Shown piece after piece: positions 1-42,874 of a stretch of DNA of 42,874 bases; the first letter of the stretch is position 1; every line of letters begins with the position of its first letter. This DNA comes from a virus, in the IMG/VR virus record IMGVR_UViG_3300027111_000003; one strand, written 5' to 3'. Made by a program: the position numbers and the translations under genes. The notes below the pieces were generated by a model that was not told where the DNA came from, did no database searches, and saw nothing but the letters and a program-made list of their open reading frames with translations.

Positions 1-46
1 GATTTAGGTTCTTCCGTGTTTTCTCTCCGGTAAAGAAGACAATAAA

Positions 47-79: not shown

Positions 80-83
80 GCCC

Positions 84-106: not shown

Positions 107-147
107 ACTGCGATAGCGGAGTGCCACGTTTTCTGGAGGCTAATCAG

Positions 148-345
148 ATGGAAATAAAGGATATTCTTGCGATAATCGGAACGGTGGCGATTTGGTTCGT
201 TGTGACAATGGCACTCCTCGGGATGACCCTGGTGCCTCTGTCCCTTTTCCTGGAGCAGCAGTGGGAACTGTATCTCCAGCGCCGAAAGGATCGCAAGCGG
301 AGAGAACGAGCAGAACGTAACGCGCTGAAAAAGCTGGAGAATTGA
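148..345 (+). CDS. Small membrane protein with basic C-terminal helix (hypothetical)
   Basis: ATG at 148 is preceded by GGAGG with 7-nt spacing. There is one clear hydrophobic span (ILAIIGTVAIWFVVTMALLGMTLVPLSLFL) and then a K/R/E-rich tail. The track ORF 121..345 uses an upstream non-ATG start. Confidence 0.5.
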   Translation: MEIKDILAIIGTVAIWFVVTMALLGMTLVPLSLFLEQQWELYLQRRKDRKRRERAERNALKKLEN

Positions 346-368
346 GAAGATCGCTCCGCTAACGGAGG

Positions 369-391
369 AATTACCCCTCCATACAGCACAT
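369..391 (+). promoter_or_regulatory. Family-B phage promoter candidate B1 (AATTACCCCTCCATACA|G)
   Basis: The 18-bp stretch 369-386 is identical to 12606-12623. It has T3/T7-group architecture and lies 33 nt upstream of the RNAP ATG. Confidence 0.6.
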
Positions 392-423
392 TCGAACAAC
401 CTTCGAGCAACGATGAGGCTTGA

Positions 424-2913: not shown

Positions 2914-2914
2914 A

Positions 2915-2937
2915 ACAATCTCTACGATAACGGAGAT
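2915..2937 (+). promoter_or_regulatory. Family-A 23-bp motif (ACAATCTCTACGATAAC|GGAGAT)
   Basis: Conserved core CGATAACGGAGA. It lies immediately after the RNAP stop, and its GGAG doubles as the Shine-Dalgarno for the ATG at 2943. Confidence 0.5.
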
Positions 2938-2942
2938 AAAGT

Positions 2943-3302
2943 ATGACCACCTTCAAGCCAGGTGATAAGGTTCGCGTGAACCCCACGCAGGAAAATATCA
3001 CGTACTTTCGGGCCAACGCTCCCGGAGTGAGTATACAAGACCCCTTCACGGTAAAAGAACAGAGAGGGTACCTTTTATCATGCGAGGAACTTGCGCAGAG
3101 ACACTACGCTGACAGGTTCTATCTCGTCTCACCACCGGTCGCTGAGAAACCCCGCCAGCTCCTCACGGTTCTCCAGATGGATCGGGCTATCGCCGCCGCT
3201 GGCGGGACCCCGAGTGTCCTCGAAGAGTACCTCGATCGGCCACTCTCGGACTTCATCCAGAACGTCATGGCCCCGAACAGTCTCACCCTCAAGTACAAAT
3301 AA
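2943..3302 (+). CDS. Hypothetical protein
   Basis: 119-aa ORF whose ATG lies 7 nt after GGAG. Coding-like composition; no recognisable motif. Confidence 0.7.
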   Translation: MTTFKPGDKVRVNPTQENITYFRANAPGVSIQDPFTVKEQRGYLLSCEELAQRHYADRFYLVSPPVAEKPRQLLTVLQMDRAIAAAGGTPSVLEEYLDRPLSDFIQNVMAPNSLTLKYK

Positions 3303-3317: not shown

Positions 3318-3803
3318 ATGCGTGCTTTGATCCTGGCGGCACTCTCCGCCCTGGTAATGACAGCATACGCATACGCAGCCCCTATACCGCCGACCTACAC
3401 GATCTCCGAGGATTTCGGAGGCCGCCTGGACGAATACGAGCACAAGTACAACCGGTGGTCCCGCGAGGGTGCCAAGGTGATCCTCGACGGCATCTGCGGG
3501 AGCGCCTGTACGGTGGTCCTCAGTACCAAGTACAACCTGGATGTCTGTGCGACGGACAGGGCCGAGGTCCTCTTCCACATGCCCTTCATGCTCGACAAGC
3601 ACATGAAGCTCGTGGACACCCCGTACAACCGGGCACTCGCGATGGTGATCTGGCACGACCATTTCCTGCGGGTCCTCCCGCCCAAGATGGCGGCTGTACT
3701 GGAGAAGAAAAAGATACCGAGCGTCTACGAAGGCGCTGAGTACAACGAGATGATCGGATGGAAAGCCCCCGATCTTTTCAAACACGTCAAACCCTGTAAC
3801 TAA
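3318..3803 (+). CDS. Secreted/periplasmic protein with cleavable signal peptide (hypothetical)
   Basis: 161 aa. The N-terminus MRALILAALSALVMTAYAYA|AP is a typical Sec signal. The mature part contains G-x-C-G-SAC and several Cys. It weakly resembles ClpP/SppA-fold periplasmic protein families, from memory only. Confidence 0.75.
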   Translation: MRALILAALSALVMTAYAYAAPIPPTYTISEDFGGRLDEYEHKYNRWSREGAKVILDGICGSACTVVLSTKYNLDVCATDRAEVLFHMPFMLDKHMKLVDTPYNRALAMVIWHDHFLRVLPPKMAAVLEKKKIPSVYEGAEYNEMIGWKAPDLFKHVKPCN

Positions 3804-3823
3804 TTCTCTACGATAACGGAGAA
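3801..3823 (+). promoter_or_regulatory. Family-A 23-bp motif (TAATTCTCTACGATAAC|GGAGAA)
   Basis: Exact core CTCTACGATAACGGAGA as at 2920-2936. It overlaps the upstream stop codon and provides the SD for the ATG at 3830. Confidence 0.5.
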
Positions 3824-3829
3824 ATAACC

Positions 3830-4033: not shown

Positions 4034-4057
4034 TCCCCCAATACCCATACCTTTTTT

Positions 4058-4080
4058 CTAATCCCTCCGATAACGAAGGA
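4058..4080 (+). promoter_or_regulatory. Family-A 23-bp motif variant (CTAATCCCTCCGATAAC|GAAGGA)
   Basis: TAAT + CCCTCC + GATAAC architecture, sequence-wise intermediate between families A and B. AAGGA serves as the SD for the ATG at 4087. Confidence 0.45.
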
Positions 4081-4086
4081 AATTCA

Positions 4087-11245: not shown

Positions 11246-11539
11246 TTGATCGGTCCCCTCTTCTTCATTCTAAACATGGACGCCCCTCCCGAGTACCGGG
11301 TGGACCTCTATTGTAGCCGCAAGAGAGTGACCAGGACGCATGTCCACTTTGAGGTCATCAACGGTTGCTGGGACGGACAGATCAATCCCGAAACCGGCGA
11401 GCTCCTAATTAAGGCGACCGGCGGCATCTCTCGAAACAACCGCATCCTCAATGTCTCCCCGCCCAAAAATCGGAGCGGCAACTACAACGATGCAATTAAC
11501 TGGGCCAGGGAATACCTGATTGAAAACTCTCCTGATTGA
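11246..11539 (+). CDS. Hypothetical protein (start TTG 11246 or ATG 11276)
   Basis: 97/87-aa ORF filling the gap before the exonuclease gene. Confidence 0.5.
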   Translation: MIGPLFFILNMDAPPEYRVDLYCSRKRVTRTHVHFEVINGCWDGQINPETGELLIKATGGISRNNRILNVSPPKNRSGNYNDAINWAREYLIENSPD

Positions 11540-12329
11540 CGGCGACATGCTCGTCCACCGGTCCACTGTGGCCGTCGAAAAAGACACCCGGTTCCTCGAC
11601 CGATACCACATCCTGTTTTCGGACGCCGAGAGCGCCTGGAATGTCCTCATGGAAACCCTGGGGGAACTCCAGGACTCCTCGGGCACCTCCGAGGTCCTCG
11701 TCGCCTTCTCTGACCCGGAAGAGAACTTCCGCAAGGGCCTCGTCGGCGGGGACTACAAGTCTCACCGGGCCGGTTCGCGCAAGCCGCTGGCCTACTGGGA
11801 AACCCGGAGGCGGGTCGAGGAGGGCTTCTCCACGATCTGCTATCCGACCTTGGAGGCCGACGACGTGATGGGTGTCCTCATGACCGAGCACCCCGGCGAT
11901 TTCGTCCTCTGGTCCCTCGACAAGGACTTGAAGCAAATCCCCGGTTACCACCTGGTGGACGACGAGGTCATCAAGCGGCCCCTCTCCGAGTGTGACCTCT
12001 TCTTCTACCTCCAGACGCTCGCTGGCGATGTCACCGATGGGTACACCGGGTGCCCGGGCATCGGCAAGGACCGGGCCGAGAAGTACCTCCGGGAGAACCT
12101 CCGGGTTACCCCGGTGAGCCATGAGCTCAAAAGCGGCCCCCGCAAGGGCCAAGTCGAAACGCGATGGGACGAGGGGCTCGCCTCCTCTCCCTGGGATACC
12201 GTGGTGTCCCTATACCAAAAGGCCGGTCTCGGGGAGGAGGACGCGCTCCTCAACGCCCGGATGGCTCGCATTCTTCGCACAGAAGACTACGTGAATGGAG
12301 AAATCGTCCTTTGGACCCCCAACGCATAA
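11520..12329 (+). CDS. 5'-3' exonuclease (T7 gp6-like, FEN/PIN fold)
   Basis: 269 aa. Has N-terminal LLIDGDMLVH and acidic clusters (EADDVMG, SLDKDL). TTG start, because no ATG precedes the conserved N-terminus. Confidence 0.88.
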   Translation: MKTLLIDGDMLVHRSTVAVEKDTRFLDRYHILFSDAESAWNVLMETLGELQDSSGTSEVLVAFSDPEENFRKGLVGGDYKSHRAGSRKPLAYWETRRRVEEGFSTICYPTLEADDVMGVLMTEHPGDFVLWSLDKDLKQIPGYHLVDDEVIKRPLSECDLFFYLQTLAGDVTDGYTGCPGIGKDRAEKYLRENLRVTPVSHELKSGPRKGQVETRWDEGLASSPWDTVVSLYQKAGLGEEDALLNARMARILRTEDYVNGEIVLWTPNA

Positions 12330-12547
12330 CCTCGGACGGCGGATCGTCCAGCTACTATATCCTCCCAGAAGGGGCCAAGGAATTAGGAGACCTCATCGAG
12401 TTCAAAGAAATGGACTTCAATCTCGGTAACATCTTCAAGGCTTGTTACCGACTGGGTGAGAAGAATGACCCGCTGTACGAGATCAACAAGATGGAGTGGT
12501 TCGTCGCCAGACTAAAGGCGCACTACCTCCGAAAGACACAAAAGTAA
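12311..12547 (+). CDS. DUF3310-like protein
   Basis: GSSSYYILPEGAKELGDLIEF...FNLGNIFKACYRLGEK...KMEWFVARLKAHY matches my memory of DUF3310. No ATG is available upstream of the conserved part. TTG at 12311 lies 10 nt after GGAG. Confidence 0.6.
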   Translation: MDPQRITSDGGSSSYYILPEGAKELGDLIEFKEMDFNLGNIFKACYRLGEKNDPLYEINKMEWFVARLKAHYLRKTQK

Positions 12548-12560
12548 CTATCGACACATA

Positions 12561-12587
12561 GAGGGTTCCTTCGGGGACCCTCTTTTT
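12561..12587 (+). terminator. Strong hairpin terminator at the end of the DNA-metabolism block
   Basis: 9-bp stem GAGGGTTCC/GGGGACCCTC with a UUCG tetraloop, followed by TTTTT. Confidence 0.85.
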
Positions 12588-12605
12588 GTTTGTCAAGTAC
12601 AAAAT

Positions 12606-12628
12606 AATTACCCCTCCATACAGAGAGA
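12606..12628 (+). promoter_or_regulatory. Family-B phage promoter candidate B2 (AATTACCCCTCCATACA|GAGAGA)
   Basis: Identical to the T3 consensus AATTAACCCTCACTAAAGGGAGA at 18 of 23 positions. It lies immediately after the terminator and ahead of the structural block. Confidence 0.65.
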
Positions 12629-12639
12629 CACGTAAAGAA

Positions 12640-12822
12640 ATGACGCAAGTTTTTCCTAGTGACGCTAGTTACCCTTCAGTAACCCCTCAACTTATAGAAC
12701 ACCTTTGTAATAAATACCCATTAGAGGGTTTTAAGAATATTCGTTCAGAAGGTGAACTAAAGACATACCAAGGTGCACAAGAGGTCATTGACTACTTGAA
12801 GACACTGCTCGCCCGACAGTAA
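12640..12822 (+). CDS. Hypothetical protein in a low-GC islet
   Basis: 60 aa from the ATG at 12640. The track ORF starts at a TTG inside the terminator T-run. The local A+T-rich composition differs from the flanks. Confidence 0.5.
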   Translation: MTQVFPSDASYPSVTPQLIEHLCNKYPLEGFKNIRSEGELKTYQGAQEVIDYLKTLLARQ

Positions 12823-12831
12823 GGAAAGCCG

Positions 12832-13035
12832 ATGTGTTTCGGTGGTAAGGAATCAAAGGTAGAGGCCCCGCCGCCTCCGGCTGAGACCCTTGAACAGGTG
12901 GCCCCTGAGAAGAAGACAGCCGCAAAGATCAACAACTCCCTGTCCATCGGTACGAAGAAGTACCGCAACGAAAGTGGTCTCGGAACCTCTGGCATGATCT
13001 CGGGTTCACCCTCGGGTCTGTCCCTGTCCAAATAA
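12832..13035 (+). CDS. Small virion-associated protein candidate (gp7.3-like position)
   Basis: 67 aa starting MCFGG. Low complexity with a Ser/Gly-rich C-terminus. SD AAGGA. It sits just before the portal gene. Confidence 0.5.
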   Translation: MCFGGKESKVEAPPPPAETLEQVAPEKKTAAKINNSLSIGTKKYRNESGLGTSGMISGSPSGLSLSK

Positions 13036-13038
13036 CGA

Positions 13039-14682
13039 GTGCCAATGTCTGACCCCGTGAATGACCTCACGGCGGTAGTGGACGCTGACGCCGCGATGTA
13101 CTCCAGGCTGGAGACAGATCGCGAAGACTTTCTGTACCGAGCGCGTGAAAACGCCAAGCTCACCATCCCATCCCTGATGCCACCCGAAGGCCACTCGTCG
13201 GCCTCCCAGCTTTACAAGCCGTGGCAATCGATCGGTTCTCACGGGGTTAACACCCTGACCTCCAAGCTCCTGATGACCCTCCTGCCAGCGAACGCTCCCA
13301 TGTTCCGCTACTCGACAAGCGACCAAGCTATCGAGGAACTGGCCCAGGACAAGAACGTCCGAGCCGATGTCGAGAAGAAGCTCAACGAGATTGAGCGTTC
13401 CGTCCAGGATGAGATCGAAGGTCTCAGTATCCGAGCCGCCCTAGTGGAAGCCCTGAAGCACCTCGTGGTGTGTGGGAATGTCCTGCTATACCTCCCGAAG
13501 TCCGGGAACCTCCGAATTTACCGCCTGGACCGCTACGTCGTCCAGCGAGACTACGAAGGCAACCTCCTTCGTGTCCTCATCAAAGAGACGGTCGCCAAGG
13601 AAACCCTTCCGGCCAACATCCAGGCCATGCTGTCCACCCCGAGTGACCTTCCGTCCGAGAAGGACAAACAGGTCAACGAGAAGGAATACGACGTTTACAC
13701 CGTGTTCACTCGTCAGGGAGACCGCCTGGTTACCCACCAGTCCATCAAGGGCATGAAGCTCCCCGGTTCCGAGGGCTCCTGGAAGGTCGATAAGTCGCCG
13801 ATCATGGCGCTTCGCTGGACCTACCTCCACGATGAAGACTATGGCCGCGCCTACATTGACGAGTACATCGGTGACCTGACCGGCGCAGAGGCCCTCTCGA
13901 AGGCCCTTCGCGAAGCTGCTGCGGCCTCGTCCAAGATTAACCCCATGGTGAACCCTACGGGCCTCACCAGGGCAGTCGACATCGCCAACGCCGAGAACCT
14001 CGAAGTCATCTCTGGCCGCGCCGACGATGTCACCATGCTCCAGTTCGACAAGCAAGCCGACATGCAGGTAACCCAGGTGGTCCTCCAGGACCTCATTACC
14101 CGCCTGTCACACGCTTTCATGATGAACAAGTCCATTCAACGTAACGGAGAGCGCGTCACAGCCGAAGAAGTGCGCACAATGATCTCCGACATTGATGATG
14201 TCCTCGGCGGTATCTACTCGCTGCTCGCCCAAGAGCTCCAGCTTCCATTGGTGGTCCGAATTATCGACCGAATGGAGCGCGAGAAGAAGATACCGAAGCT
14301 GTCGTCCCTCAAGGGAGCCGATGGTAAACCAGTCACTCGACCGAAGATCGTGACAGGTATTGAGGCGCTCGGACGTGGTCACGACTACAACAAGTACATG
14401 ACCCTCGTGAAGGAAGTACTTGCCCCGATCGGTGACGCTGCATGGCAGGAAGTCAATCTCAGCGACTTCATCAAGCGAGCCGCTGTGTCTCTATCCATCG
14501 ATACTGATGGTCTACTCAAGAGCCCCGAAGACAAGCAAGCCGCCCTCGCGCAGCAGCAGGGTCTTCAGCAGGGCCAAATGAACCAGCAGATGCTAATGGA
14601 CGTGGTGAAAGGCGCAACGCCCCAGGTCGCCAAGGTGGCCTCTGAGGGTATCGCTTCTCAAATCACAGGGACACCAGAATAA
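13039..14682 (+). CDS. Portal (head-tail connector) protein, T7 gp8-like
   Basis: 547 aa (GTG 13039; the first ATG is at 13045). Size and position relative to scaffold and capsid fit gp8, and it has an acidic/Gln-rich C-terminus. Confidence 0.92.
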   Translation: MPMSDPVNDLTAVVDADAAMYSRLETDREDFLYRARENAKLTIPSLMPPEGHSSASQLYKPWQSIGSHGVNTLTSKLLMTLLPANAPMFRYSTSDQAIEELAQDKNVRADVEKKLNEIERSVQDEIEGLSIRAALVEALKHLVVCGNVLLYLPKSGNLRIYRLDRYVVQRDYEGNLLRVLIKETVAKETLPANIQAMLSTPSDLPSEKDKQVNEKEYDVYTVFTRQGDRLVTHQSIKGMKLPGSEGSWKVDKSPIMALRWTYLHDEDYGRAYIDEYIGDLTGAEALSKALREAAAASSKINPMVNPTGLTRAVDIANAENLEVISGRADDVTMLQFDKQADMQVTQVVLQDLITRLSHAFMMNKSIQRNGERVTAEEVRTMISDIDDVLGGIYSLLAQELQLPLVVRIIDRMEREKKIPKLSSLKGADGKPVTRPKIVTGIEALGRGHDYNKYMTLVKEVLAPIGDAAWQEVNLSDFIKRAAVSLSIDTDGLLKSPEDKQAALAQQQGLQQGQMNQQMLMDVVKGATPQVAKVASEGIASQITGTPE

Positions 14683-33163: not shown

Positions 33164-33200
33164 GACAAGGAAAGGGGAGACAAAAGTGAAGACAAGTCTG

Positions 33201-33230
33201 TTGACTTCTTCTACTCTTCTGTGCTACCCT
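33201..33230 (+). promoter_or_regulatory. Host-type promoter candidate P1 (TTGACT-N18-TACCCT)
   Basis: CTGTTGACTTC is shared with P2. First of three TTGACTTC elements. Confidence 0.4.
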
Positions 33231-33347
33231 ATCTAACTTAAAGATAACTTAGAGACATCCTAGGTTATCTTAGGTTTATTACTAGTTAGATAAGAGTAGT
33301 ATAATATCTTAGGTTACCCCAGAGGTTCCCCCGGAGATAACTTAGAG
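33211..33347. repeat. A+T-rich repeat cluster (interrupted inverted repeat and ATCTTAGGTT / GATAACTTAGAG direct repeats)
   Basis: CTACTCTT...ATCTAACT (33211-38) pairs with AGTTAGATAAGAGTAG (33284-99). ATCTTAGGTT occurs at 33267-76 and 33306-15. GATAACTTAGAG occurs at 33243-54 and 33336-47. Confidence 0.85.
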
Positions 33348-33441
33348 TGAACCACGAGTTCCCTCCGGGTTCCTCCGACGGGCTTCCTACTACTCTCTCC
33401 CATACTTGGTTTGATGTATCGATTTACTTTCCCCCAGAGAG

Positions 33442-33470
33442 CCCTCAGGAGTCCCTCAGGGACCCTCTGG
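33442..33470. repeat. Three helically phased copies of CCCTCAGG/CCCTCTGG (10-11 bp spacing)
   Basis: Copies at 33442-49, 33453-60 and 33463-70. This is the reverse complement of the motif in the array at 33850-33941. Confidence 0.85.
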
Positions 33471-33849
33471 GCTACCACCGTAGCCGAGCACCCCCAGAAC
33501 GCTCTCCACGGGCTCCTGTGGGCGATTACGGGGCACATGGAGGTGCACCCGAGGGTTACCCGGGGGAACCCCGCGACCTTTTTCTGAAAAATCTGCATCC
33601 CTGTATCATATATACCCACAACCTACAATCCCCCCGTGGCCCCCTGTAGAGCAACCTGGAGTGCCCTATACGGCACGACCAACCGGCACAGTCTCCACTA
33701 AGTGATTGATTTCATTAGGGTACACATTAGATGTAGTATCGGTTAGGGCCGACGAGGGCGGGGATAACCCCAGGTTTCCCGGGGTTTCCAGCCTTCTATG
33801 TCTATACATATTCAAGCCTCCGTGTCCCCTCCCACATTTTTTCCCTCCA

Positions 33850-33941
33850 GGGCAACCTGAGGGCACCCCGAGGGCAACCGAGAGTCCACCGCTCCCATGT
33901 CATCCGGTTCCCTCCAGGGTCACCGAGGGGTCACCGAGGGG
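33850..33941. repeat. Five 11-bp tandem units GGGYMMCCNGA (3 + 2 copies)
   Basis: GGGCAACCTGA, GGGCACCCCGA and GGGCAACCGAG at 33850-82. GGGTCACCGAG occurs twice at 33917-38. Confidence 0.85.
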
Positions 33942-34112
33942 ACTAACTATCTATCACGTTATGTTACACTCTGTAACAATTCACCTCGTAAAGCTGCTGG
34001 ATAGCAGCGTACATCCAACCAAGCATATATAGCACACGCGCATAACGCACGGTTCCAATCCTATACCGATGGCCCCTCAGCGCAGCCGCTCAAACTTTCT
34101 TCGATAAGCCTG

Positions 34113-34141
34113 TTGACTTCGATAACGGAGATATGCTTATC
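34113..34141 (+). promoter_or_regulatory. Host-type promoter candidate P2 fused to a family-A core (TTGACTTCGATAACGGAGA)
   Basis: The -35 hexamer TTGACT is directly followed by CGATAACGGAGA. A possible -10 (GCTTAT/CTTATC) lies 16-17 nt downstream. Confidence 0.45.
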
Positions 34142-34350
34142 TGTAGTCACGGTGATCGAAAGAGAAACCGGGCAGAGGTCCTCCGGGGTCTCTGAGTTCT
34201 TCGAAATCGATAGATGGTCTCTTTGAGTTACCTCAAGGTCTCCACCGGTTCACTGGGTCTCAACCGCTCAACCTGCTACGGCAAACAGAGTACTGAGAAG
34301 CTGGAAAACACGGCAGGACAACAAACCAAGAGAAAGCCTCAAAATAGGGA

Positions 34351-34378
34351 TTGACTTCGATAACGAAGCGAATACAGT
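34351..34378 (+). promoter_or_regulatory. Host-type promoter candidate P3 (TTGACT-N16-TACAGT) fused to a family-A-like core
   Basis: TTGACTTCGATAACGAAG followed by TACAGT. It has the same -10 flavour as the regulator promoter at 39906. Confidence 0.5.
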
Positions 34379-34707
34379 TAGACACAACAGAGCGGCGGCG
34401 GCAGAGCGCTAAAGCGGATCGGATGGAAACTCCGAGTGTTCTTTGAAAATCAAATAGGGAAGTGTGGACATGTCCAAAGCACGTAGTGCGGAGGGGCGGC
34501 CTGGTAAACCGCAACGGGAAACCGTGTGTCCACTACGATAACCCACGAAATGGCTCCCGCGTCCAAAGCGTCGGAGTAAGTGCAGTGCATACTAGCCACG
34601 GGTCTTAGGTCCATACTAAGTGTCCCGTGTTTCCATTACCTTCGATTGTCTTAGCCAACCGCAGCATTTGCGGTTCGTTAAAGCAATCCAACCGGGGAGC
34701 ACCTCAA

Positions 34708-34995
34708 ATGACCGTCACAATCAAAACCGATAACAAATGGAAAGACTTCAAGTACGCCAACGAGGTTCCGGCAAAGGTCCTCGCGTCACAGTTCGACCAC
34801 CTGGAGGACGAAACTGATGGTTTCATCCTATACCGTGGCCGCTGGTATCACCTTTCGGACTTCATGCGCGTTCCTGAAGGGGCGGAGGACTTGAAGGGCT
34901 GGCATGGTTACGCCGGTGATAGTTTCTTTAGTGGCGTCCTCATCAAAGTGAGCCGCGACGGCGAGCAATATATGATTGCCACGCATTTGTCCTAA
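34708..34995 (+). CDS. Early protein, hypothetical
   Basis: 95 aa from the ATG at 34708, 8 nt after GGGGAG. The track ORF starts upstream at a non-ATG codon. First gene downstream of P1-P3. Confidence 0.65.
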   Translation: MTVTIKTDNKWKDFKYANEVPAKVLASQFDHLEDETDGFILYRGRWYHLSDFMRVPEGAEDLKGWHGYAGDSFFSGVLIKVSRDGEQYMIATHLS

Positions 34996-35014
34996 TCTCT
35001 GCGATAACGGAGAG
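34992..35014 (+). promoter_or_regulatory. Family-A 23-bp motif (CTAATCTCTGCGATAAC|GGAGAG)
   Basis: Overlaps the upstream stop codon. Its downstream sequence GAGAGACACG is shared with family-B copy B2. Confidence 0.5.
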
Positions 35015-35026
35015 AGACACGCGATC

Positions 35027-35119
35027 ATGTCCACCTTCATTCCCCTCGCAAGTATCACCGCGATTACCCTCGCGGTTCTCCTCTCGGTTGGCGCGTTGGT
35101 ATTCTATGCCGATCGGTAA
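35027..35119 (+). CDS. 30-aa hydrophobic micro-protein (candidate)
   Basis: MSTFIPLASITAITLAVLLSVGALVFYADR. A single TM-like span, starting 13 nt after the family-A motif. Below the ORF-track size cut-off. Confidence 0.4.
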   Translation: MSTFIPLASITAITLAVLLSVGALVFYADR

Positions 35120-35147
35120 AGCACTCAAATCCCTGGAGATAACTCAG

Positions 35148-35480
35148 ATGGACATCGATTTTAGCACGGCAACTGCCATCGGCATCATTAACCGATCAAT
35201 CCTTATGCATCCGTCTCTTTTCAGGGATGCCGTGATGTCCCGCTATCAGGAGGACATTGGCTATGCGTCCAAGTCCGAAGGCCGCACCCGTCAAGCCGTT
35301 CTCGCAAGTGCCGACGCATCCCTTCGAGGATATAACATCGTGGCGGAGGGATACCAGATCGATGCAATCGACATGGCTTCCGGTATCATCCTGCTTAACA
35401 TCGCGTGTAAGCTCCAATGCATCCCAGCGTATGTCAGGACGGCAGCAGCCCTCCGCACTTGGCCGGGCGACGACGTCTAA
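35148..35480 (+). CDS. Early protein, hypothetical
   Basis: 110 aa from the ATG at 35148, 8 nt after GGAGA. The track ORF starts at 35088 with a non-ATG codon. Confidence 0.55.
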   Translation: MDIDFSTATAIGIINRSILMHPSLFRDAVMSRYQEDIGYASKSEGRTRQAVLASADASLRGYNIVAEGYQIDAIDMASGIILLNIACKLQCIPAYVRTAAALRTWPGDDV

Positions 35481-35500
35481 TTCCCTGCGATAACGTAGAG
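35478..35500 (+). promoter_or_regulatory. Family-A 23-bp motif variant (TAATTCCCTGCGATAAC|GTAGAG)
   Basis: Overlaps the stop at 35478-80 and is followed by a structured leader. Confidence 0.45.
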
Positions 35501-35581
35501 ATAACCTGTACCGATTGTCTTATCGGCCCCTCGGGTAACCCCTGAGGCGCCCATTAAGTTAATCCAACGGGAGCAACGATC

Positions 35582-35743
35582 ATGCCGCTTCACCTTCTGT
35601 ATGCCGAGGAAGAACTTGTCGCCAAATGGCAGCGCCATGCCGCCTACTTCTATGCGCAGTGGAAGGCGTGGGGCGACCGCGACCACCTCGCAGCGTATCG
35701 CCGGTATTCCCAGATGGCCCTGAAGGTCCTCACCGAGTGCTAG
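35582..35743 (+). CDS. 53-aa helical early protein (candidate)
   Basis: ATG is 7 nt after GGGAG. MPLHLLYAEEELVAKWQRHAAYFYAQWKAWGDRDHLAAYRRYSQMALKVLTEC. Not in the track (under 60 aa). Confidence 0.45.
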   Translation: MPLHLLYAEEELVAKWQRHAAYFYAQWKAWGDRDHLAAYRRYSQMALKVLTEC

Positions 35744-35816
35744 TGCGATTGTCTCTGATACACCTCGCGTGTCTCCTGGTGTTAACCATCGGGTTTCTCG
35801 CGGGTGAAACTGTGTT

Positions 35817-35839
35817 CTAATCTCTCCGATTGTGAAGGG
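35817..35839 (+). promoter_or_regulatory. Degenerate family-A motif (CTAATCTCTCCGATTGTGAAGGG)
   Basis: The upstream half is identical to family A; the downstream half has diverged. Confidence 0.3.
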
Positions 35840-35849
35840 AACCTATACC

Positions 35850-36341
35850 ATGCCTATCACCGCTGACGACCTCGTCCGCCGCGAAGTGTTCTATTGCGTG
35901 TCCTCGCTTGTCTCGACGCTGGCGCAGGGTTCGGGAGCCATAATCGGCGACCGCGACCTATCGTCGCTCACCGAGCAAGCCTTCGAGCTCGCTTGCCCCG
36001 TTGATGATTACGAGCGCGCCGCCCGTCAGGAGGGCTGGAAAACCGCCGACATGACGCCGGGGATGCTCATCAACGAAACCACCTACGGGGAGAGCCAACC
36101 AGCAGAAGCGTTCTACGGCACCTGGGAGGAGCTTTGCGAGCGTTTCGACATCGAACCCTATCAGCGCGAAGTGTTCGAGCACTGGATTGTCTCCGATTGG
36201 CTCGCCGACAAGCTCGCCGAGCACGGGGAGAAGGTGGACAAGGACTTCGCCGGGTTAACCGTGTGGGCTCGCACGACAACCGGTCAGGGCATCGCTTCCG
36301 ATAGCGTCATCGAAGCAATCGTCGCCGACATCAACAAATAA
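35850..36341 (+). CDS. Early protein, hypothetical
   Basis: 163 aa from the ATG at 35850. The conserved-looking C-terminal part is EVFEHWIVSDWLADKLAEHGE...VWARTTTGQGIASDSV. I cannot name the family. Confidence 0.65.
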   Translation: MPITADDLVRREVFYCVSSLVSTLAQGSGAIIGDRDLSSLTEQAFELACPVDDYERAARQEGWKTADMTPGMLINETTYGESQPAEAFYGTWEELCERFDIEPYQREVFEHWIVSDWLADKLAEHGEKVDKDFAGLTVWARTTTGQGIASDSVIEAIVADINK

Positions 36342-36361
36342 CCGAGGAGAGGTGTGTCCGA

Positions 36362-36550
36362 ATGCCTACGATAACGGAGACAACAGGTCTCACCACAGAA
36401 GCCCTCGAAGCTGTCATCGAGGAGCTCCGCGCCAACGATAGTCCCCTGGTGCCTGGGATAACCGTGAGTAACCAGCGGCGGATACCCGTTGTGGACTTCT
36501 ATTTCCCAAGGCTGTGGGGGGGCCCACCCCGACCTCCTCGTTGTCGATGA
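36362..36550 (+). CDS. Short ORF, possibly the true N-terminus of the following large protein (frame change at a G7 run)
   Basis: Strong SD (GAGGAGAGG) 9 nt upstream of the ATG at 36362. The ORF overlaps the +1 frame ORF, which is open from 36489. G7 lies at 36516-36522. Confidence 0.35.
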   Translation: MPTITETTGLTTEALEAVIEELRANDSPLVPGITVSNQRRIPVVDFYFPRLWGGPPRPPRCR

Positions 36551-38259: not shown

Positions 38260-39270
38260 GTGGCCAAACTGACCGCCGACGAAAAAACGATCCTCGACAT
38301 GTTCCAATACATGCGTCCCTCGGGGACACCTATGGAACAAGTCTTCATCGATCGTTTCCTGACGCCCCTGGGGTTCACCCGAGACCCCTTCCGTAATCTC
38401 GTCCTGACCGTGGGCGACCGGCCTAACATCCTGTGGTCCTCGCATATGGACACCGTCCATCGGGAGGAGGGCATCCAGCCCCTCCACTATGACGGGGAGT
38501 TCCTGGAGATCGGCAAGAAGGCCAAATCAAGTACCTGCCTCGGCGCTGACGACACGGCGGGTATCTGGATTATGACCGAAATGGTCAAGGCGGGTGTCCC
38601 CGGGGTCTACGTCATTCACCACGGGGAGGAGATCGGTTGCAAGGGGTCTCGGGCACTCGCCAAGGGAAACCCCGAGTTCTTCGAGGGCATTGATGCGGCC
38701 ATCGCGTTTGACCGGATGGGATACAACAGTGTCATCACTCACCAGATGGGAGCTCGAACCGCCTCGGATGCCTTCTCGGCCAGTTTCGCGGATGCCCTCG
38801 ATGATGCCCTGGGGATAGACGCGGGGTTCAAGGCGGATGACGGAGGAGCCTACACCGATACAAACGAGTACGCGGACATCGTCTCCGAGTGCACGAATAT
38901 CTCGGTTGGCTATCACAGTCAGCATAGCCGCAACGAAAACCAGCACGTTCCCTTCCTGATCGCCATGCGCAACGCGATGGTACGGATGGACCTCTCGGCC
39001 CTCGTCTTCGCCAGGGACCCCTCTGTGGTCGATTACGCGGGGTCCTACGGGTTCTACCGGGGCTACAAGTCCCTCTTCGATGACGACCCCTGGGATGACC
39101 CGAACAACTACGTCATCCCGGACAGGCGCTCGGACGATAGCATCGAGGAGGTCATCAAGGCGTACCCGGAGATCGTCGCGGCGATCCTCCACTCCTACGG
39201 GTTAACCCGGACGATGCTCCTCGATGAGATCGCCGAGGTCTACGGGGAGGAGGCGCTGATTGCAAACTGA
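38260..39270 (+). CDS. M28/M20-type zinc metallopeptidase-like protein
   Basis: 336 aa. GTG start 6 nt after GAGGAGG. The metal-ligand pattern SHMDTVH, LGADDTAG, HHGEEIGCKGS, GGAYTDTNEY and GYHSQHSRNE is typical of co-catalytic zinc aminopeptidases. Confidence 0.75.
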   Translation: MAKLTADEKTILDMFQYMRPSGTPMEQVFIDRFLTPLGFTRDPFRNLVLTVGDRPNILWSSHMDTVHREEGIQPLHYDGEFLEIGKKAKSSTCLGADDTAGIWIMTEMVKAGVPGVYVIHHGEEIGCKGSRALAKGNPEFFEGIDAAIAFDRMGYNSVITHQMGARTASDAFSASFADALDDALGIDAGFKADDGGAYTDTNEYADIVSECTNISVGYHSQHSRNENQHVPFLIAMRNAMVRMDLSALVFARDPSVVDYAGSYGFYRGYKSLFDDDPWDDPNNYVIPDRRSDDSIEEVIKAYPEIVAAILHSYGLTRTMLLDEIAEVYGEEALIAN

Positions 39271-39905: not shown

Positions 39906-39934
39906 TTGACGCTGTGAGAGGTGGGGTTTACAGA
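39906..39934 (+). promoter_or_regulatory. Host-type promoter for the regulator-integrase operon (TTGACG-N17-TACAGA)
   Basis: Good -35 and 17-nt spacing. It lies about 30 nt upstream of a strong SD (CAGGAGAG) and the ATG at 39966. Confidence 0.5.
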
Positions 39935-39965
39935 GTAGAGACCTTTTCACTACAGGAGAGAAAAC

Positions 39966-40343
39966 ATGGGGACCGAGAGAGACACGATTGGGCGGTTAAT
40001 TAACGCCTTGCGACTGTTCAACAGGATGGACACAAAGATGCAGGTGTCTACCATCCTTACCTTCTTAGAAGTTGCAGCCGCAGACCTGGACAAGCGAGAC
40101 CTTTCAATGAGGGAACTGGAAAAACGCATCGGGTTCACCTCGGGGGTCGCCTCCAGGAACGCCTACTACTGGGGCGAGGGTACAAAGGAAATGCGCGGAG
40201 GTCGGCAGTTGATCGACGTGCGAATGAGTCGTCAAGACCACCGACTGAGAGATTTGGTTCTAACCAACAAGGGAAGGGCCTTCCTCCACACTCTGATAGG
40301 AGAGGACAATGGCGCGGCAACGCGGGAAGAAGTACCAGGCTGA
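39966..40343 (+). CDS. MarR-type winged-helix transcriptional regulator (candidate lysogeny repressor)
   Basis: 125 aa. LSMRELEKRIGFTSGVASRNAYYW ... DHRLRDLVLTNKGRAFL fits the MarR wHTH-plus-wing pattern. It overlaps the integrase start by 35 nt. Confidence 0.65.
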   Translation: MGTERDTIGRLINALRLFNRMDTKMQVSTILTFLEVAAADLDKRDLSMRELEKRIGFTSGVASRNAYYWGEGTKEMRGGRQLIDVRMSRQDHRLRDLVLTNKGRAFLHTLIGEDNGAATREEVPG

Positions 40344-41277
40344 CGTCGTAATCGACGGGGTTCGTAAGCGCCCCACCTTTGCGACGTTGGCAGAAGCAGA
40401 AGCCTATGAACGGGCTATTGCAAACGGGCTCCCCGCCGCCGGGGTGTCTACCTTCAAGAAGTTCCACGAGACCCACTTCGAGTTCATCTGGGGCGACAAC
40501 AATGCCCCCGAGGCAACTCAGTTCAACCTGGGCTCCCTGGACAAGTTCATTCCAGCCGACAAGCCGATCGCCGAGATCACCGCCCCTTACATCATCGACC
40601 TCGTGTCGCGGATGAAGAAAACGGGTATCTCCAATGCGACGATCAATCGCCGCTTATCGGCCTTGTCGAAACTCCTGAAACACGCGGAGAAACTCGAACT
40701 CACCCGGAAGCCCCCGATAGGTTTCCTGCGGGAGAACGAGGGGCGCGACCGCGTCCTATCCCGTGTCGAGGAGCAGAAGATGTTCCAGTTCTTCGACCAC
40801 ATGGGGATGACCCTCTCGGGGGCCATCGTGCGGTTCCTCCTGTACACCGGGTGTCGCCTCGGGGAGGTCTTCACGCTCGACCGGGACCGAGTGAGCGACG
40901 GACGGGTGACCTTCCACTACACCGTTACCAAGACGAGCAAGACGCGGCTGGTGCCCCTGATAGGCCCCGCGAAGGACGCCTGGACCCGCGTGTGCGGCAT
41001 GACGAACAACCCGTATCCCTTCGCGGAGATGCCGAGGGATACTTTCAGGGACCACTGGAACCGCTTCCGGGAGCACATGGATGCCCTGGACGATCCCCAG
41101 TTCGTCCCTCACATGCTGCGGCACACATGCGCCTCGCGGCTTGTCTCGAAGGGCGTCCCGTTGCCCCAGGTCATGCTGTGGATGGGACACCGGAATATTC
41201 AAACGACCATGCGGTATTCCCATCTGGCCCCGAAGGACCTCGATGGTGCCGCAAAGGCGCTCCTGGAGGATGCGTGA
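40309..41277 (+). CDS. int: Tyrosine recombinase / phage integrase
   Basis: 322 aa. Has Arg I (YTGCRLGE), H-x-x-R (HMLRHTCASRL) and a catalytic Tyr context (GHRNIQTTMRYSHL). Confidence 0.95.
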   Translation: MARQRGKKYQADVVIDGVRKRPTFATLAEAEAYERAIANGLPAAGVSTFKKFHETHFEFIWGDNNAPEATQFNLGSLDKFIPADKPIAEITAPYIIDLVSRMKKTGISNATINRRLSALSKLLKHAEKLELTRKPPIGFLRENEGRDRVLSRVEEQKMFQFFDHMGMTLSGAIVRFLLYTGCRLGEVFTLDRDRVSDGRVTFHYTVTKTSKTRLVPLIGPAKDAWTRVCGMTNNPYPFAEMPRDTFRDHWNRFREHMDALDDPQFVPHMLRHTCASRLVSKGVPLPQVMLWMGHRNIQTTMRYSHLAPKDLDGAAKALLEDA

Positions 41278-41660
41278 TGATAACCGAGAAAGACATTAAC
41301 CGTTTGGCCTATGTCGCTTGTAGAGCATTAGACGTCCCGACTGTCTCTACCCACATGGAGGCGGTTATGGTTGCACTAAGTAGAGAGCTCCGCTCCTGCC
41401 TTCTCGATAAGCCGGAGGCGGTAGAGGCTCCCGAAGGGATGGACGACATTCTCGCCGAGCAATCCGAGGTGAATGTCCTGCGGCCCGGAGAGAAATGGAG
41501 GCTCTTCCCCAAGAAGGCGCCGGGAGAAGTGGACAGAGACCCGGTTTACCGCGAAGCCAGCCGGCAACTGAAACCGCTACGGGACGCCATGTTCTCCACC
41601 CCCGCCGATACGGACGCCGCGCAGAGCGGGGAGAGCGGCTTCAAGGCTGAACGCACCTGA
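41277..41660 (+). CDS. Hypothetical protein translationally coupled to the integrase (possible recombination directionality factor)
   Basis: 127 aa from the ATG at 41277, with an ATGA overlap on the int stop. The upstream part of track ORF 40851..41660 is an alternate frame of int. Confidence 0.5.
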   Translation: MITEKDINRLAYVACRALDVPTVSTHMEAVMVALSRELRSCLLDKPEAVEAPEGMDDILAEQSEVNVLRPGEKWRLFPKKAPGEVDRDPVYREASRQLKPLRDAMFSTPADTDAAQSGESGFKAERT

Positions 41661-41862
41661 AGTAAGCCATGAGGTTCTTCGCGTCGTGTAACTGCGCGAC
41701 CTTCCCGTACTTCTGACAATGAGCGTCCGCATTGCTTTGCGCCGCTCCAATATTCAGGTTCCCTACCATCGTGTAGGTGATCCCGGCAGAGTTCCCGGTG
41801 CCCGACCCGGCGCACCCGGACAGGCTGACTAGTGCTGCTAGGGCGATCATCGCATAGCGCAT
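41641..41862 (-). CDS. Small lipoprotein (moron candidate), the only convincing minus-strand gene
   Basis: 73 aa. MRYAMIALAALVSLSG|C is a signal peptide plus lipobox. SD GGGGGAA lies 8-9 nt upstream on the minus strand. Two Cys in the mature part. Confidence 0.7.
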   Translation of the reverse strand: MRYAMIALAALVSLSGCAGSGTGNSAGITYTMVGNLNIGAAQSNADAHCQKYGKVAQLHDAKNLMAYFRCVQP

Positions 41863-41946
41863 TCTTGAAATTTCCCCCTTGAGAAAACCTACGGCTAACG
41901 TGATCGCGCTGCGATTGCAAGGCCGATAACCTATGGAGCTGTTGAA

Positions 41947-42318
41947 ATGAAACCTATGCCTGGAGCAGGACTTGCCTTGCCAATCGCTGAAGCCATGAAA
42001 CAGCTCGCCGCCGCCGAGGCGGAAGCGATTTCTACTCTCAAGAAGGTGCAAGCTAAGTGCGACCACCAGATCGTATCTGAGATGCCGTGGCGAGCTGGAA
42101 ATTACTTTGGAAGCCGGGCGGCGCACCGCATCTGCAACCATTGTAGACTGATCGAGGAAGGCTCTCACTGGAGCGGCGGCTCTGTTTGGTCGAGACACGA
42201 CTACGGGGAAGCTGATCTAGGAAATACCCCGGGACGAATTGTCTTACCCATCGACAGTGACGAATTCTGGAAAATGCGGACGGAGGGCGGGATGGGCCTC
42301 CTAGGGGGAGCAGCATGA
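41947..42318 (+). CDS. Hypothetical Cys/His-containing protein
   Basis: 123 aa. SD GGAG 8 nt upstream. Has a CDH...CNHC pattern. Confidence 0.55.
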   Translation: MKPMPGAGLALPIAEAMKQLAAAEAEAISTLKKVQAKCDHQIVSEMPWRAGNYFGSRAAHRICNHCRLIEEGSHWSGGSVWSRHDYGEADLGNTPGRIVLPIDSDEFWKMRTEGGMGLLGGAA

Positions 42319-42530
42319 AGGCTTGCAAGGACTGCTGTTTCTATGACCAGAGCTGGGGAGCCTCGTGTAACCGACCCGAGCTTCGAAGGTTTGATTTGGT
42401 TGACGGGGAGCTCCCTTCCTATCCCCATCAAAATCGAGAGGACGAGGACAAATGCGGCCCCGAGGCGAAACTCTTCGAGGCTCGGTCTCGACCAGGAAAC
42501 TGGTGGCGATCCTTCTGTTCTCTGGCTTGA
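42315..42530 (+). CDS. Small Cys-rich hypothetical protein
   Basis: 71 aa with an ATGA overlap on the upstream stop. Has the pattern CKDCC...C...C...C. Confidence 0.55.
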   Translation: MKACKDCCFYDQSWGASCNRPELRRFDLVDGELPSYPHQNREDEDKCGPEAKLFEARSRPGNWWRSFCSLA

Positions 42531-42565
42531 CCCCCAGGCAACCCTGTGAGATACCGCGCACCATC

Positions 42566-42650
42566 GCGGGTGTGGCGGAATTGGCAGACGCACTTGGTTT
42601 AGGTCCAAGCGCCGCAAGGCGTGGGGGTTCAAGTCCCTCCATCCGCACCA
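42566..42650 (+). tRNA. tRNA-Leu (anticodon UAG), type II with long variable arm, CCA encoded
   Basis: Manual cloverleaf. Acceptor stem GCGGGTG/CATCCGC. Anticodon stem CTTGG/CCAAG with loop TTTAGGT. Variable arm GCC-GCAA-GGC. T arm GGGGG-TTCAAGT-CCCTC. A73 followed by CCA. Confidence 0.9.
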
Positions 42651-42655
42651 AAATT

Positions 42656-42698
42656 CTTGTGCCAACGCTGTGCCAAACGGTGCCAGACACGGCACAAG
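42656..42698. repeat. Phased GTGCCA repeats (3 direct, 1 inverted) just 3' of the tRNA: candidate attP arm-type protein-binding sites
   Basis: GTGCCA starts at 42659, 42670 and 42680 (11- and 10-bp spacing). CTTGTGCC (42656-63) is inverted with respect to GGCACAAG (42691-98). Confidence 0.6.
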
Positions 42699-42747
42699 GT
42701 ATCGCCGGGAACCCCTGGAAACCCTGAGTTTCTTGGTGTTCTCAATT

Positions 42748-42874
42748 GATTTAGGTTCTTCCGTGTTTTCTCTCCGGTAAAGAAGACAATAAACTCAAGG
42801 TCCTAGCAAACCTTGGGTTTTTCTTTGCCCTAAATATCTTCTGTATCGGAGAGACTGCGATAGCGGAGTGCCAC
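42748..42874. repeat. Terminal direct repeat, copy 2 (identical to 1..127)
   Basis: Exact duplicate of the first 127 bases. Confidence 0.95.

Follow-up and report, generated by a model that had tools for sequence, protein, structure and literature searches.

Temperate T7-like phages have already been described with a recurring gene order, in which genes for a peptidase, a winged helix-turn-helix regulator and an integrase are followed by cargo genes, a tRNA-Leu gene, a terminator, a membrane-protein gene and the gene for the single-subunit RNA polymerase; likewise described are the family of the regulator, the clade of the integrase, the position of the phage attachment site (attP), the tRNA that serves as target and even the host gene next to it. 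For the pelagiphages HTVC025P, HTVC119P and HTVC200P, replacement of the host tRNA by a phage-borne one was noted (10.1101/410191), and environmental pelagiphage reads across one prophage junction (attR) contain an integrase gene, an intact tRNA-Leu gene, a tRNA-Leu gene's 3′ part, and the gene for trigger factor (10.1101/410191), which is the same host locus as the one treated here. Prophages of Sinorhizobium meliloti AK21 and RU11/001 that resemble phage Lo5R7ANS sit in the tRNA-Leu(UAG) gene, of which the host has a single copy, and bring along a tRNA-Leu(UAG) gene of their own (PMC11476347), and in mycobacteriophages such “tRNA-dependent lysogeny” has been shown genetically (PMC10865867). 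The locus analysed here comprises positions 39906-42747 of a viral sequence of 42,874 nucleotides (nt) (IMG/VR record IMGVR_UViG_3300027111_000003; the whole stretch is called the window), for which a first-pass annotation made from the letters alone had proposed a lysogeny module consisting of a host-type promoter, a MarR-like regulator, a tyrosine integrase, a coupled downstream open reading frame (ORF), a divergent lipoprotein gene, a complete tRNA-Leu gene and phased repeats. All of these parts are present and lie, on the circular map, upstream of a T7-type polymerase gene (Table 1). Integrated copies show that the phage is temperate and inserts into the chromosome of Sinorhizobium medicae, splitting its tRNA-Leu(UAG) gene; taken jointly, the evidence makes it highly likely that a temperate T7-like S. 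medicae phage has its functional lysogeny cassette here, with an operon for regulator and integrase, integration through a core of 12 base pairs (bp), substitution of the host tRNA and silencing of the polymerase.

Integration into the host tRNA-Leu(UAG) gene

The proposal of a lysogeny module hung on the existence of integrated copies collinear with the window, and these were found. The exact regulator protein is encoded in 16 contigs. In ENA contig ERZ27247765:k141_229335 (94,147 bp) a prophage 99.2% identical to the window has host genes on both sides, namely those for SecDF, squalene/phytoene synthase and TrmFO to the left of its polymerase end (L016) and those for trigger factor and gcvP-H-T to the right of its integrase end (L008). 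Identity to the phage starts on the left at window position 1 (= 42748) and ends on the right at 42759. Read base by base, attL is ...GCGGGTATGGTGAAATTGGTAGACACGCCA / GATTTAGGTTCT / TCCGTGTTTT..., that is, the 5′ half of the host tRNA gene, the core and the window from position 13 onward (in L016, L017, L018 and L028), while attR is ...GGTGTTCTCAATT / GATTTAGGTTCT / GGTGCCGCAAGGCGTGGGAGTTCAAGTCTCTCTACCCGCACCA..., that is, the window up to 42747, the core and the 3′ half of the host tRNA gene (in L008, L011 and L012); the identity between attP and the bacterial site (attB) ends at both edges of the 12-bp core. One or the other junction recurs in JGI 3300033430, ERZ27247764, ERZ27247758 (a cargo variant) and IMG/VR 3300022740.

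Mapped onto the host tRNA-Leu(UAG), the core takes in the final two bases of the 5′ anticodon stem, all 7 nt of the loop and the initial three bases of the 3′ stem. Joining the host flanks in silico yields an 85-nt tRNA-Leu(tag) gene, which is folded by ARAGORN; the same program finds no tRNA in attL and only the phage tRNA in attR. The joined, empty site is matched exactly over 270 nt in five S. medicae assemblies, where an intact tRNA-Leu(TAG) gene lies between YjiS-like genes and tig, ~175 bp upstream of the latter, and the trigger factor flanking the prophage is identical to S. medicae ABR60032.1. Because the shared core is only 12 bp long, the host tRNA gene is cut in two and rebuilt at neither junction. 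Products of site-specific recombination, that is, attL and attR sharing their core with attP and attB, are present in the data; they were presumably made by the integrase of the window itself.

The free form is represented as well. The unique sequence amounts to a circular map of 42,747 bp, window positions 1-127 being identical to 42748-42874, and the attP junction of this circle is read through at 99-100% identity by independent assemblies (Logan SRR5683559, ENA ERZ27247767, Logan SRR7635121), which are the free or circular form of the phage. The 127-nt terminal repeat was considered as a biological direct terminal repeat and rejected; an assembler overlap is more likely, a Logan contig of the same genome overlapping by 30 nt and others reading through. 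The window begins at the first base of the core, and 127 nt is a common assembler k-mer length, which suggests that the contig was cut at a graph branch between the free (attP) and the integrated (attL) form; both forms may have been present in the sample.

The phage tRNA-Leu(UAG)

The phage carries a complete tRNA-Leu(UAG) gene of its own. That tRNA-Leu is the place of attachment, as the first-pass annotation had it, is right insofar as a host tRNA-Leu(UAG) gene is split; the phage tRNA gene, however, is not the attachment site and does not rebuild the host gene. As a candidate attP it was rejected, since the junctions lie 97 nt downstream of it and only 9 of the 12 core bases occur in the tRNA. 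Phage and host tRNA-Leu(UAG) are identical at 68 of 85 nt (80%), their D, anticodon, T and acceptor stems differing by paired changes; the anticodon stem reads CTTGG/CCAAG in the phage and CCAGA/TCTGG in the host, and with this difference the phage gene would be unable to act as a second crossover site.

Most likely, the phage tRNA replaces the host tRNA function lost on integration. As in tRNA-dependent lysogeny elsewhere, attB lies within a tRNA gene of the host, which cannot be restored from so short a core; and since the host gene is destroyed, and tRNA-Leu(UAG) is single-copy in S. meliloti 1021, the sister species (PMC11476347), substitution is the simplest reading. A purely translational role of the phage tRNA is the weaker explanation.

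The regulator-integrase operon

The integrase scores 77.4 bits with PF00589, against a cut-off of 27.1; its SAM-like core-binding domain falls just below the Pfam threshold. Alignment to the structures of HP1 Int, P2 Int and XerD reveals a complete active site (R183, K208, H268, R271, H294, Y303), which bears out the earlier claim of an intact R/HxxR/Y set. Compared with 50,697 phage records, the protein has its best matches almost exclusively in integrases of T7-like phages (ProddE, BB8, P-PSG-11, Lo5R7ANS, LUZ100, HTVC200P, Pasto and the CRP roseophages). The start of the gene overlaps the regulator gene by 35 nt, and its ribosome-binding site (GGAGAGG) lies inside the latter.

Searched as a single sequence against Pfam, NCBIfam and PDB, the regulator gave nothing usable, MprA being matched only at E 0.018; matches to PPR were dismissed as repeat artefacts. 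An exhaustive search returned 134 relatives, mostly of 105-130 amino acids (aa). Of the 76 family members that were aligned, 33 match Pfam MarR_2 (best E 9e-7), and the profile of all 76 matches MarR-family PDB chains (best E 7.6e-6). The AlphaFold model computed on the family alignment has a mean confidence (pLDDT) of 90.8 and consists of helices 2-21, 27-41, 48-55 and 59-69, a beta wing at 83-99 and a helix at 101-112; in this model a winged helix-turn-helix is flanked by dimer-interface helices, as is characteristic of the MarR fold, although the protein is shorter than typical MarR members and the last helix is apparently missing. The top Foldseek matches listed from the PDB all belong to the MarR family (MepR, MexR, MarR, SlyA, PefR), with TM scores of 0.5-0.66. 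Homologs were recognized by hhalign in LUZ100 (gp10, 99.8%), Lo5R7ANS (Lo5R7ANS_11, 99.3%) and Pasto (Pasto_007, 96.8%), and the regulator of a second S. medicae prophage (CP149869.1) falls into the same family (99.9%). By family profile, fold and homologs, the label “MarR-like” of the first-pass annotation is thus right as a statement on fold or superfamily. The protein is the only recognizable DNA-binding protein of the early region.

The host-type promoter proposed for this operon has TTGACG and TACAGA hexamers separated by 17 nt. In the window itself this is a mere consensus match and was not among the outputs of a strict consensus scan; the claim gains from conservation, however. When four relatives with regulators of 44-56% identity are aligned to it, TTGAC is kept in L108, L109 and L110 and less well in L021 (TTACC), and a TA-rich -10 hexamer stands at equal distance from the -35 element in all four. 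This conservation supports a real promoter at 39906; in LUZ100 a host promoter (P3) has been mapped at the corresponding place (PMC10134795).

Two side observations concern the regulator gene. A 17-nt element, (C/T)TAC(A/C)GGAGAGAAAACA, at 39949-39965 (+) covers its ribosome-binding site and recurs in inverted orientation at 42763-42780 (-), adjoining the att core, with 15 of 17 positions identical; related copies lie at 39488 and 42840. Further, a solitary homolog of the regulator (57% identical) is encoded in L023 at 2798-3172 between host genes (RidA-like, argininosuccinate synthase), lacks an integrase gene in its neighbourhood and may represent an orphan or a domesticated copy.

T7-type gene content

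Outside the module, Pfam matches of the called genes show T7-type content and order, with endonuclease I, primase-helicase, DNA polymerase A, the T7 tail protein, the small terminase and a T7-type large terminase. The polymerase is less than 40% identical to those of its nearest cultured relatives, among them roseophage CRP-804, Ralstonia phages, Lo5R7ANS and Pasto. What sets temperate T7-like phages (integrase-bearing Autographiviridae) apart is found together here: genes in T7 order, a pair of regulator and integrase that precedes the polymerase, an attP located between the integrase and polymerase genes, and integrated copies. The order of regulator, integrase, attP and polymerase is common to CRP-804, LUZ100, Lo5R7ANS and Pasto.

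Just upstream of the module, at 38260-39270, lies a gene for an M28/M42-like zinc peptidase (phrog_4191, 1e-69); Pasto has a “zinc peptidase” at the matching position, and this seems to be a conserved early gene of the lineage. The stretch 33200-36500, which follows the large terminase gene, has a lower G+C content (0.51-0.56), small unannotated ORFs and many promoter-like elements; it probably contains both the physical ends of the genome and the true early region.

The attP arms and the stretch up to the polymerase gene

On the circle, attP spans roughly from 42655 to 127. In the P arm, GTGCCA occurs at 42659, 42670 and 42680, that is, with spacings of 11 and 10 nt; three copies on the same strand within 22 nt arise in about 1 in 10,000 random placements by simulation, while genome-wide the motif is not enriched (20 found, 18.6 expected). 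Phased arrays also stand beside homologous integrases elsewhere: Mesorhizobium prophages have five CTGTGCCA-like copies, Pasto has four GTGCCA after its tRNA-Leu gene, and arrays of GTGACAA occur in S. medicae prophage L114 (three or four copies) and in Lo5R7ANS (four). Since the arrays adjoin homologous integrases even in distant relatives, they are good candidates for arm-type sites, and the GTGCCA repeats of the window probably serve as such.

The first-pass annotation had the module run “straight” into the polymerase gene. It does lie upstream of that gene; the core, a terminator-like hairpin, a 65-aa ORF and a promoter-like block intervene, however. The terminator is conserved in position in prophage L004, with one paired change from A-T to G-C, and the terminators of Pasto and Lo5R7ANS are likewise placed. 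The 18-nt inverted repeat bracketing it has counterparts in L004 as well, namely CCCTACGATAACGACGA and the perfect palindrome CTACGTTAACGTAG, the latter following TTGACA. Further downstream, the palindrome and the promoter-like block ahead of the polymerase gene are kept in L004 and L029, and the arms of the palindrome co-vary in L029 (CTTCG/CGAAG). These comparisons reach as far as the records do: L029 is trimmed just upstream of the membrane-protein ORF, and the IMG/VR proviruses L108-L110 are trimmed at gene ends, with att sites and tRNAs cut off.

The block AATTACCCCTCCATACAGCACAT resembles the mapped phage promoters of LUZ100, (G)ATTACCACACAG, of which one is placed ahead of the polymerase gene of that phage; the block also resembles the T3 promoter, AATTAACCCTCACTAAAGGGAGA. 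By this likeness, the polymerase gene probably has a phage-type promoter of its own and can amplify its own expression, in line with the first-pass annotation.

Table 1. Features of the lysogeny module, of attP and of the polymerase region (window positions; attP elements also carry their second position on the overlapping end).
Feature	Position	Strand	Basis or remark
Candidate host sigma-70-type promoter of the regulator-integrase operon	39906-39934	+	Consensus match
MarR-fold winged-helix regulator, 125 aa; putative lysogeny repressor	39966-40343	+	phrog_9665 “transcriptional regulator”, 5.6e-14
Tyrosine integrase, 322 aa	40309-41277	+	PF00589, 1.5e-21; phrog_1, 1.4e-58
127-aa ORF, coupled to the integrase by a TGATG overlap with its stop codon	41277-41660	+	Variable cargo
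73-aa lipoprotein, MRYAMIALAALVSLSGC	41641-41862	-	Signal peptide; lipobox MRYAMIALAALVSLSG/C (LSG/C)
123-aa ORF (cargo)	41947-42318	+	Stretch 42037-42280 is 72-74% identical in DNA to hypothetical genes in Sinorhizobium phages 16-3 (p083) and NV1.1.1
71-aa Cys-rich ORF (cargo)	42315-42530	+	No family match in domain and profile scans
Complete phage tRNA-Leu(UAG)	42566-42650	+	ARAGORN; Rfam RF00005, 52.3 bits
Three phased GTGCCA and one inverted GGCAC; candidate arm-type integrase sites, P arm	42659-42695	+	Cluster simulation
attP common core GATTTAGGTTCT, 12 bp	42748-42759 (also 1-12)	+	attL and attR junctions read base by base
18-nt inverted repeat TCTCTCCGGTAAAGAAGA / TCTTCTGTATCGGAGAGA bracketing the terminator; candidate protein-binding sites	42769-42786, 42837-42854		89% complementary
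Intrinsic-terminator-like hairpin with T-run, just downstream of the core	42791-42820 (also 44-73)	+	11-bp stem; dG -12.9 kcal/mol, z -2.4
GTGCCAC, candidate P′-arm integrase site	42868-42874 (also 121-127)	+	L004 has GTGACAAC at the matching position
65-aa membrane-protein ORF between attP and polymerase	148-345	+	Called in all related contigs; L004 counterpart; Pasto membrane protein at this position
Perfect palindrome CTCCGCTAACGGAG (356-369), then T3/LUZ100-type promoter-like block AATTACCCCTCCATACAGCACAT (371-393)	354-393	+	Ends 30 nt before the polymerase start
Single-subunit T7-type RNA polymerase, 829 aa	424-2913	+	PF00940, 4.4e-100; phrog_414, 4e-224
26-30-nt intergenic element, 8 copies	2909-2938, 3795-3824, 4052-4081, 34104-34133, 34986-35015, 35472-35501, 35811-35840, 36353-36382; related copy 34342	+	Repeat comparison

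Proposed silencing of the polymerase

How a polymerase that drives its own synthesis is kept off in a lysogen may be pictured as follows. A promoter for the host polymerase would drive the operon of MarR-fold regulator and tyrosine integrase; the integrase would recombine the attP core with the host tRNA-Leu(UAG) gene, whose anticodon stem-loop contains the same 12 bp, and the phage tRNA would supply the decoding function lost from the split host gene. Integration leaves the polymerase gene leftmost in the prophage, with the regulator-integrase operon 42 kb away at the right end. As attP lies between the unit of regulator, integrase, cargo and tRNA and the polymerase gene, transcription reading through from the early operon could not reach the polymerase in the integrated form; in LUZ100, such read-through is the proposed route to polymerase expression (PMC10134795). 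In the prophage the polymerase gene is located downstream of the promoter of the host tRNA and of the truncated tRNA, and the terminator behind the core would stop that transcription. The promoters remaining near the polymerase gene, its phage-type promoter included, would be repressed by the MarR-fold protein; a role of the regulator in polymerase silencing is put forward as a hypothesis in the LUZ100 report, which cites Boeckman et al. 2022 (PMC10134795). It is in this way, we infer, that the polymerase would be silenced.

Candidate operators come from a 26-30-nt intergenic element that looks like a T3/T7 promoter (AAT..C.CT.CGATAAC/GGAGA) and whose copies are read, from their sequence, as T3/T7-type promoters. 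Its core, CGATAACG, is palindrome-like and enriched, 9 copies being present where 1.9 are expected, a number reached in 0 of 100 shuffles; at 34104 and 34342 this core comes after a TTGACT hexamer, and the GGAG of the three copies that follow the polymerase gene also provides the next gene with its ribosome-binding site. Cores resembling CGCTAACG or CGCTAGCG stand behind the -35 element of the regulator promoter in two relatives (L021 and L110). A different reading of the element, as an RNA hairpin hiding the ribosome-binding site, was rejected, for the variable third position of the arms is usually non-complementary among the copies and the hairpin is weakly supported.

Candidate sites of the palindrome CTnCG(A/T)TAACGnAG are found in all eight phage-type promoters, in the spacers of the TTGAC-type host promoters at 34104 and 34342, beside the polymerase promoter and in the regulator promoters of L021 and L110. 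A single MarR-fold repressor might conceivably silence the whole T7 programme through this palindrome, with the separation brought about by integration and the terminator behind the core as two structural insulators. As a whole, this model is doubtful; if it were true, it would explain, concretely and in a form open to experiment, how a T7-like lysogen keeps a self-amplifying polymerase circuit off.

Alternative explanations

Several observations weigh against the region being a functional lysogeny cassette of the kind described. Taken alone, the regulator has no Pfam match at E ≤ 0.01, MarR models included, and it is at this curated threshold that the label “MarR-like” falls short. The protein is a putative repressor whose role and target sites are deduced from its position, its fold and the hypothesis published for LUZ100. 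The -10 element of the proposed operon promoter is weak. Scans with Pfam and PHROG, in which small ORFs were included at relaxed thresholds, found no excisionase. Finally, CUA codons amount to 3.7 per 1000 in phage genes and to 1.7 per 1000 in ~3,600 codons of the host flanks, that is, they are ~2.2-fold commoner in the phage genes than in the host genes sampled. Some of these points lend themselves to other explanations of the parts. With no other excisionase candidate in the genome scans, the MarR-fold protein might be a recombination directionality factor or architectural cofactor, similar to an excisionase, that works with the integrase at attP, attL and attR and is not a lysogeny repressor. 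In lambda the xis gene overlaps int, and the regulator gene, too, lies directly upstream of the integrase gene with an overlap of 35 nt; many excisionases are winged-helix proteins, as the regulator is predicted to be, and for T7-like phages the repressor role is a hypothesis only (PMC10134795). The predicted fold, however, has the long N- and C-terminal helices of MarR dimers, and the top structural matches listed are MarR-family regulators, mostly repressors, several of which were solved on palindromic operators. The early region is without another candidate repressor, and palindromic sites surround the promoter region of the polymerase and also occur in relatives' regulator promoters. ProddE, which lacks a MarR-fold protein, has a CI-type repressor and a separate excisionase, a comparison that is not decisive. 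A role in recombination is, on these grounds, unlikely, and a repressor of lysogeny remains the preferred reading of the protein. Most improbable is that the module is a decaying relic of a phage now effectively lytic, as has been suspected for P-SSP7 or LUZ100: the weak -10 element would agree with decay, and from LUZ100 stable lysogens were unobtainable despite the same gene set (PMC10134795), but prophages 99-100% identical to the circular form sit at the precise site in several samples, which already contradicts it, and the catalytic residues of the integrase are all intact and the attP elements conserved.

The tRNA gene can also be viewed differently. It might serve mainly lytic growth, by supplying a rare codon or by evading an anticodon nuclease, and owe its place beside attP to an old imprecise excision. 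The codon bias given above would fit this, anti-defence roles of phage tRNAs are documented (discussion in PMC10865867), and capture of tRNA-Leu by imprecise excision was proposed by the authors of the LUZ100 study (PMC10134795). Against it, CUA still makes up only 4.4% of the phage leucine codons, and the anticodon is the very one of the gene destroyed by integration, which is single-copy in the sister species S. meliloti (PMC11476347). L114 and Lo5R7ANS, which share the core, keep a tRNA-Leu(UAG) gene beside the attachment site, and the phage anticodon stem departs from that of the host exactly at the core, which fits co-existence with the integrase. Roles in lytic growth and in lysogeny are not mutually exclusive; as the main reason for the gene, the former is distinctly improbable, and substitution for the split host gene is preferred.

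Cargo genes between integrase and tRNA

The 127-aa ORF coupled to the integrase gene has no family match in domain and profile scans; ~210 nt of it (41389-41628) are 98.7% identical to Sinorhizobium phage AP-16-3. The lipoprotein gene has a weak match to a lipoprotein family (E 0.01), and its product is prophage cargo, possibly related to exclusion or to the envelope. Two variants, L009 and L011 (SRR7635121, ERZ27247758), are 98.5% identical to the window elsewhere; between integrase and tRNA they have genes for a 179-aa, a DUF7352 and a 224-aa protein; this variant cargo occupies 11399-13105 in both and corresponds to window 41362-42296. There, the coupled 127-aa ORF is replaced by other genes and the 123-aa ORF by the DUF7352 and 224-aa genes, while the lipoprotein gene is retained at 91% DNA identity. 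Judged from these comparisons, the stretch is mosaic, exchangeable prophage cargo. The matches of the cargo to temperate Sinorhizobium siphoviruses fit a Sinorhizobium host and gene exchange among its temperate phages; they point to recent exchange among unrelated phages sharing a host.

Comparison with described systems

Related prophages reside in isolate genomes. A prophage of AFS086343 (a “Rhizobiales bacterium” isolate) has a polymerase 86% identical to that of the window, the same tRNA at the same position and, following the core, the same series of elements. The prophage L114 in S. medicae CP149869.1 (1548030-1555505) combines a regulator, a 347-aa integrase, its own tRNA-Leu(TAG) and GTGACAA repeats with the same core, followed by the 3′ half of the host tRNA gene and tig. 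Among cultured phages, the Mesorhizobium phage Lo5R7ANS (vB_MloP_Lo5R7ANS, Pairvirus, KM199771) shares the order of winged helix-turn-helix regulator, tyrosine integrase, cargo, own tRNA-Leu(TAG) and T7-type polymerase; its tRNA has the same CTTGG/CCAAG stem, and the core GATTTAGGTTC lies downstream of it (AGATTTAGGTTC, at a distance of 20 nt), with a terminator and four GTGACAA behind this core. It differs in that its polymerase is only ~35% and its integrase ~32% identical, its cargo is different and includes a restriction-modification pair of the BglII type, its core is 20 nt instead of 97 nt away from the tRNA, its arm repeats are on the other side and its host species is another one. Beyond Sinorhizobium, the Mesorhizobium prophages L019-L022 (e.g. 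CP100469.1) were noted: they have a regulator 56% identical to that of the window and a T7-type terminase, end at a tRNA-Cys(GCA) gene beside PCMT, TolC-like and ValRS genes, and carry their five CTGTGCCA-like repeats between integrase and tRNA-Cys; pelagiphages also use tRNA-Cys beside ValRS.

Pelagiphages of the HTVC019P type, especially HTVC025P and HTVC011P, are T7-like as well and encode a MarR-type regulator and an integrase; their tRNA-Leu(TAG) gene stands between the genes for integrase and polymerase, in whose intergenic region attP is also found. On integration the host tRNA is disrupted, and the phage tRNA is “likely used instead” (10.1101/410191). In contrast to the phage described here, they are AT-rich marine SAR11 phages with ~30% protein identity, and their integration was seen by polymerase chain reaction and in reads from infected cultures, with no SAR11 genome carrying a resident prophage (10.1101/410191), whereas here prophages are present in contigs and isolate genomes. 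LUZ100 and Pasto have in common with the window a homologous regulator, a regulator-integrase operon read from a host promoter, a tRNA-Leu gene within the module, and a terminator and a phage-type promoter upstream of the polymerase; Pasto, a Rhizobium/Agrobacterium phage, in addition shares the 35-nt overlap of regulator and integrase genes, the upstream zinc peptidase and the GTGCCA repeats. In both, however, the anticodon of the tRNA-Leu is TAA, and in the Pseudomonas phage LUZ100 the tRNA gene lies between regulator and integrase on the other strand, and lysogens were never obtained (PMC10134795). Mycobacteriophages such as Fionnbharth resemble the phage in their tyrosine integrase with arm-type sites and in a core of ~10 bp within a host tRNA gene that is not rebuilt (PMC10865867), but are siphoviruses of Actinobacteria that use tRNA-Lys(UUU) and have unrelated integrases and repressors (PMC10865867); the requirement for the phage tRNA was shown by genetics there (PMC10865867), a Fionnbharth deleted for its tRNA having a normal burst size but giving no viable lysogens at attB, whereas we infer it for the present phage.

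Measured against these systems, and contrary to the first-pass annotation, a G+C-rich member with a MarR-type regulator is not unusual, for the same family is found upstream of the integrase in LUZ100 (61% G+C), Lo5R7ANS and Pasto, and a MarR-type regulator is annotated at this place also in pelagiphages and roseophages. Knowledge of this kind of system is unchanged, and silencing is a known question for which better-studied models exist; studies of polymerase silencing by the regulator could make use of isolates that harbour related prophages (AFS086343, S. medicae CP149869.1, S. meliloti AK21 and RU11/001). Within the rhizobial T7-like lineage, tRNA-dependent lysogeny appears as the standard design, in which the anticodon loop of tRNA-Leu(UAG) holds the 12-bp core and the phage tRNA has a recoded anticodon stem, and integrase, attP and tRNA together could make a rhizobial integration vector. 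What the present locus adds to the described systems is the exact att anatomy of an S. medicae phage, its integrated and free forms side by side, and a phage tRNA that figures as a substitute and not as the attachment site; it is a sequence-level case of a T7-like phage lysogenizing the cultivable and genetically tractable S. medicae, with attP, attB, attL and attR all in public data.

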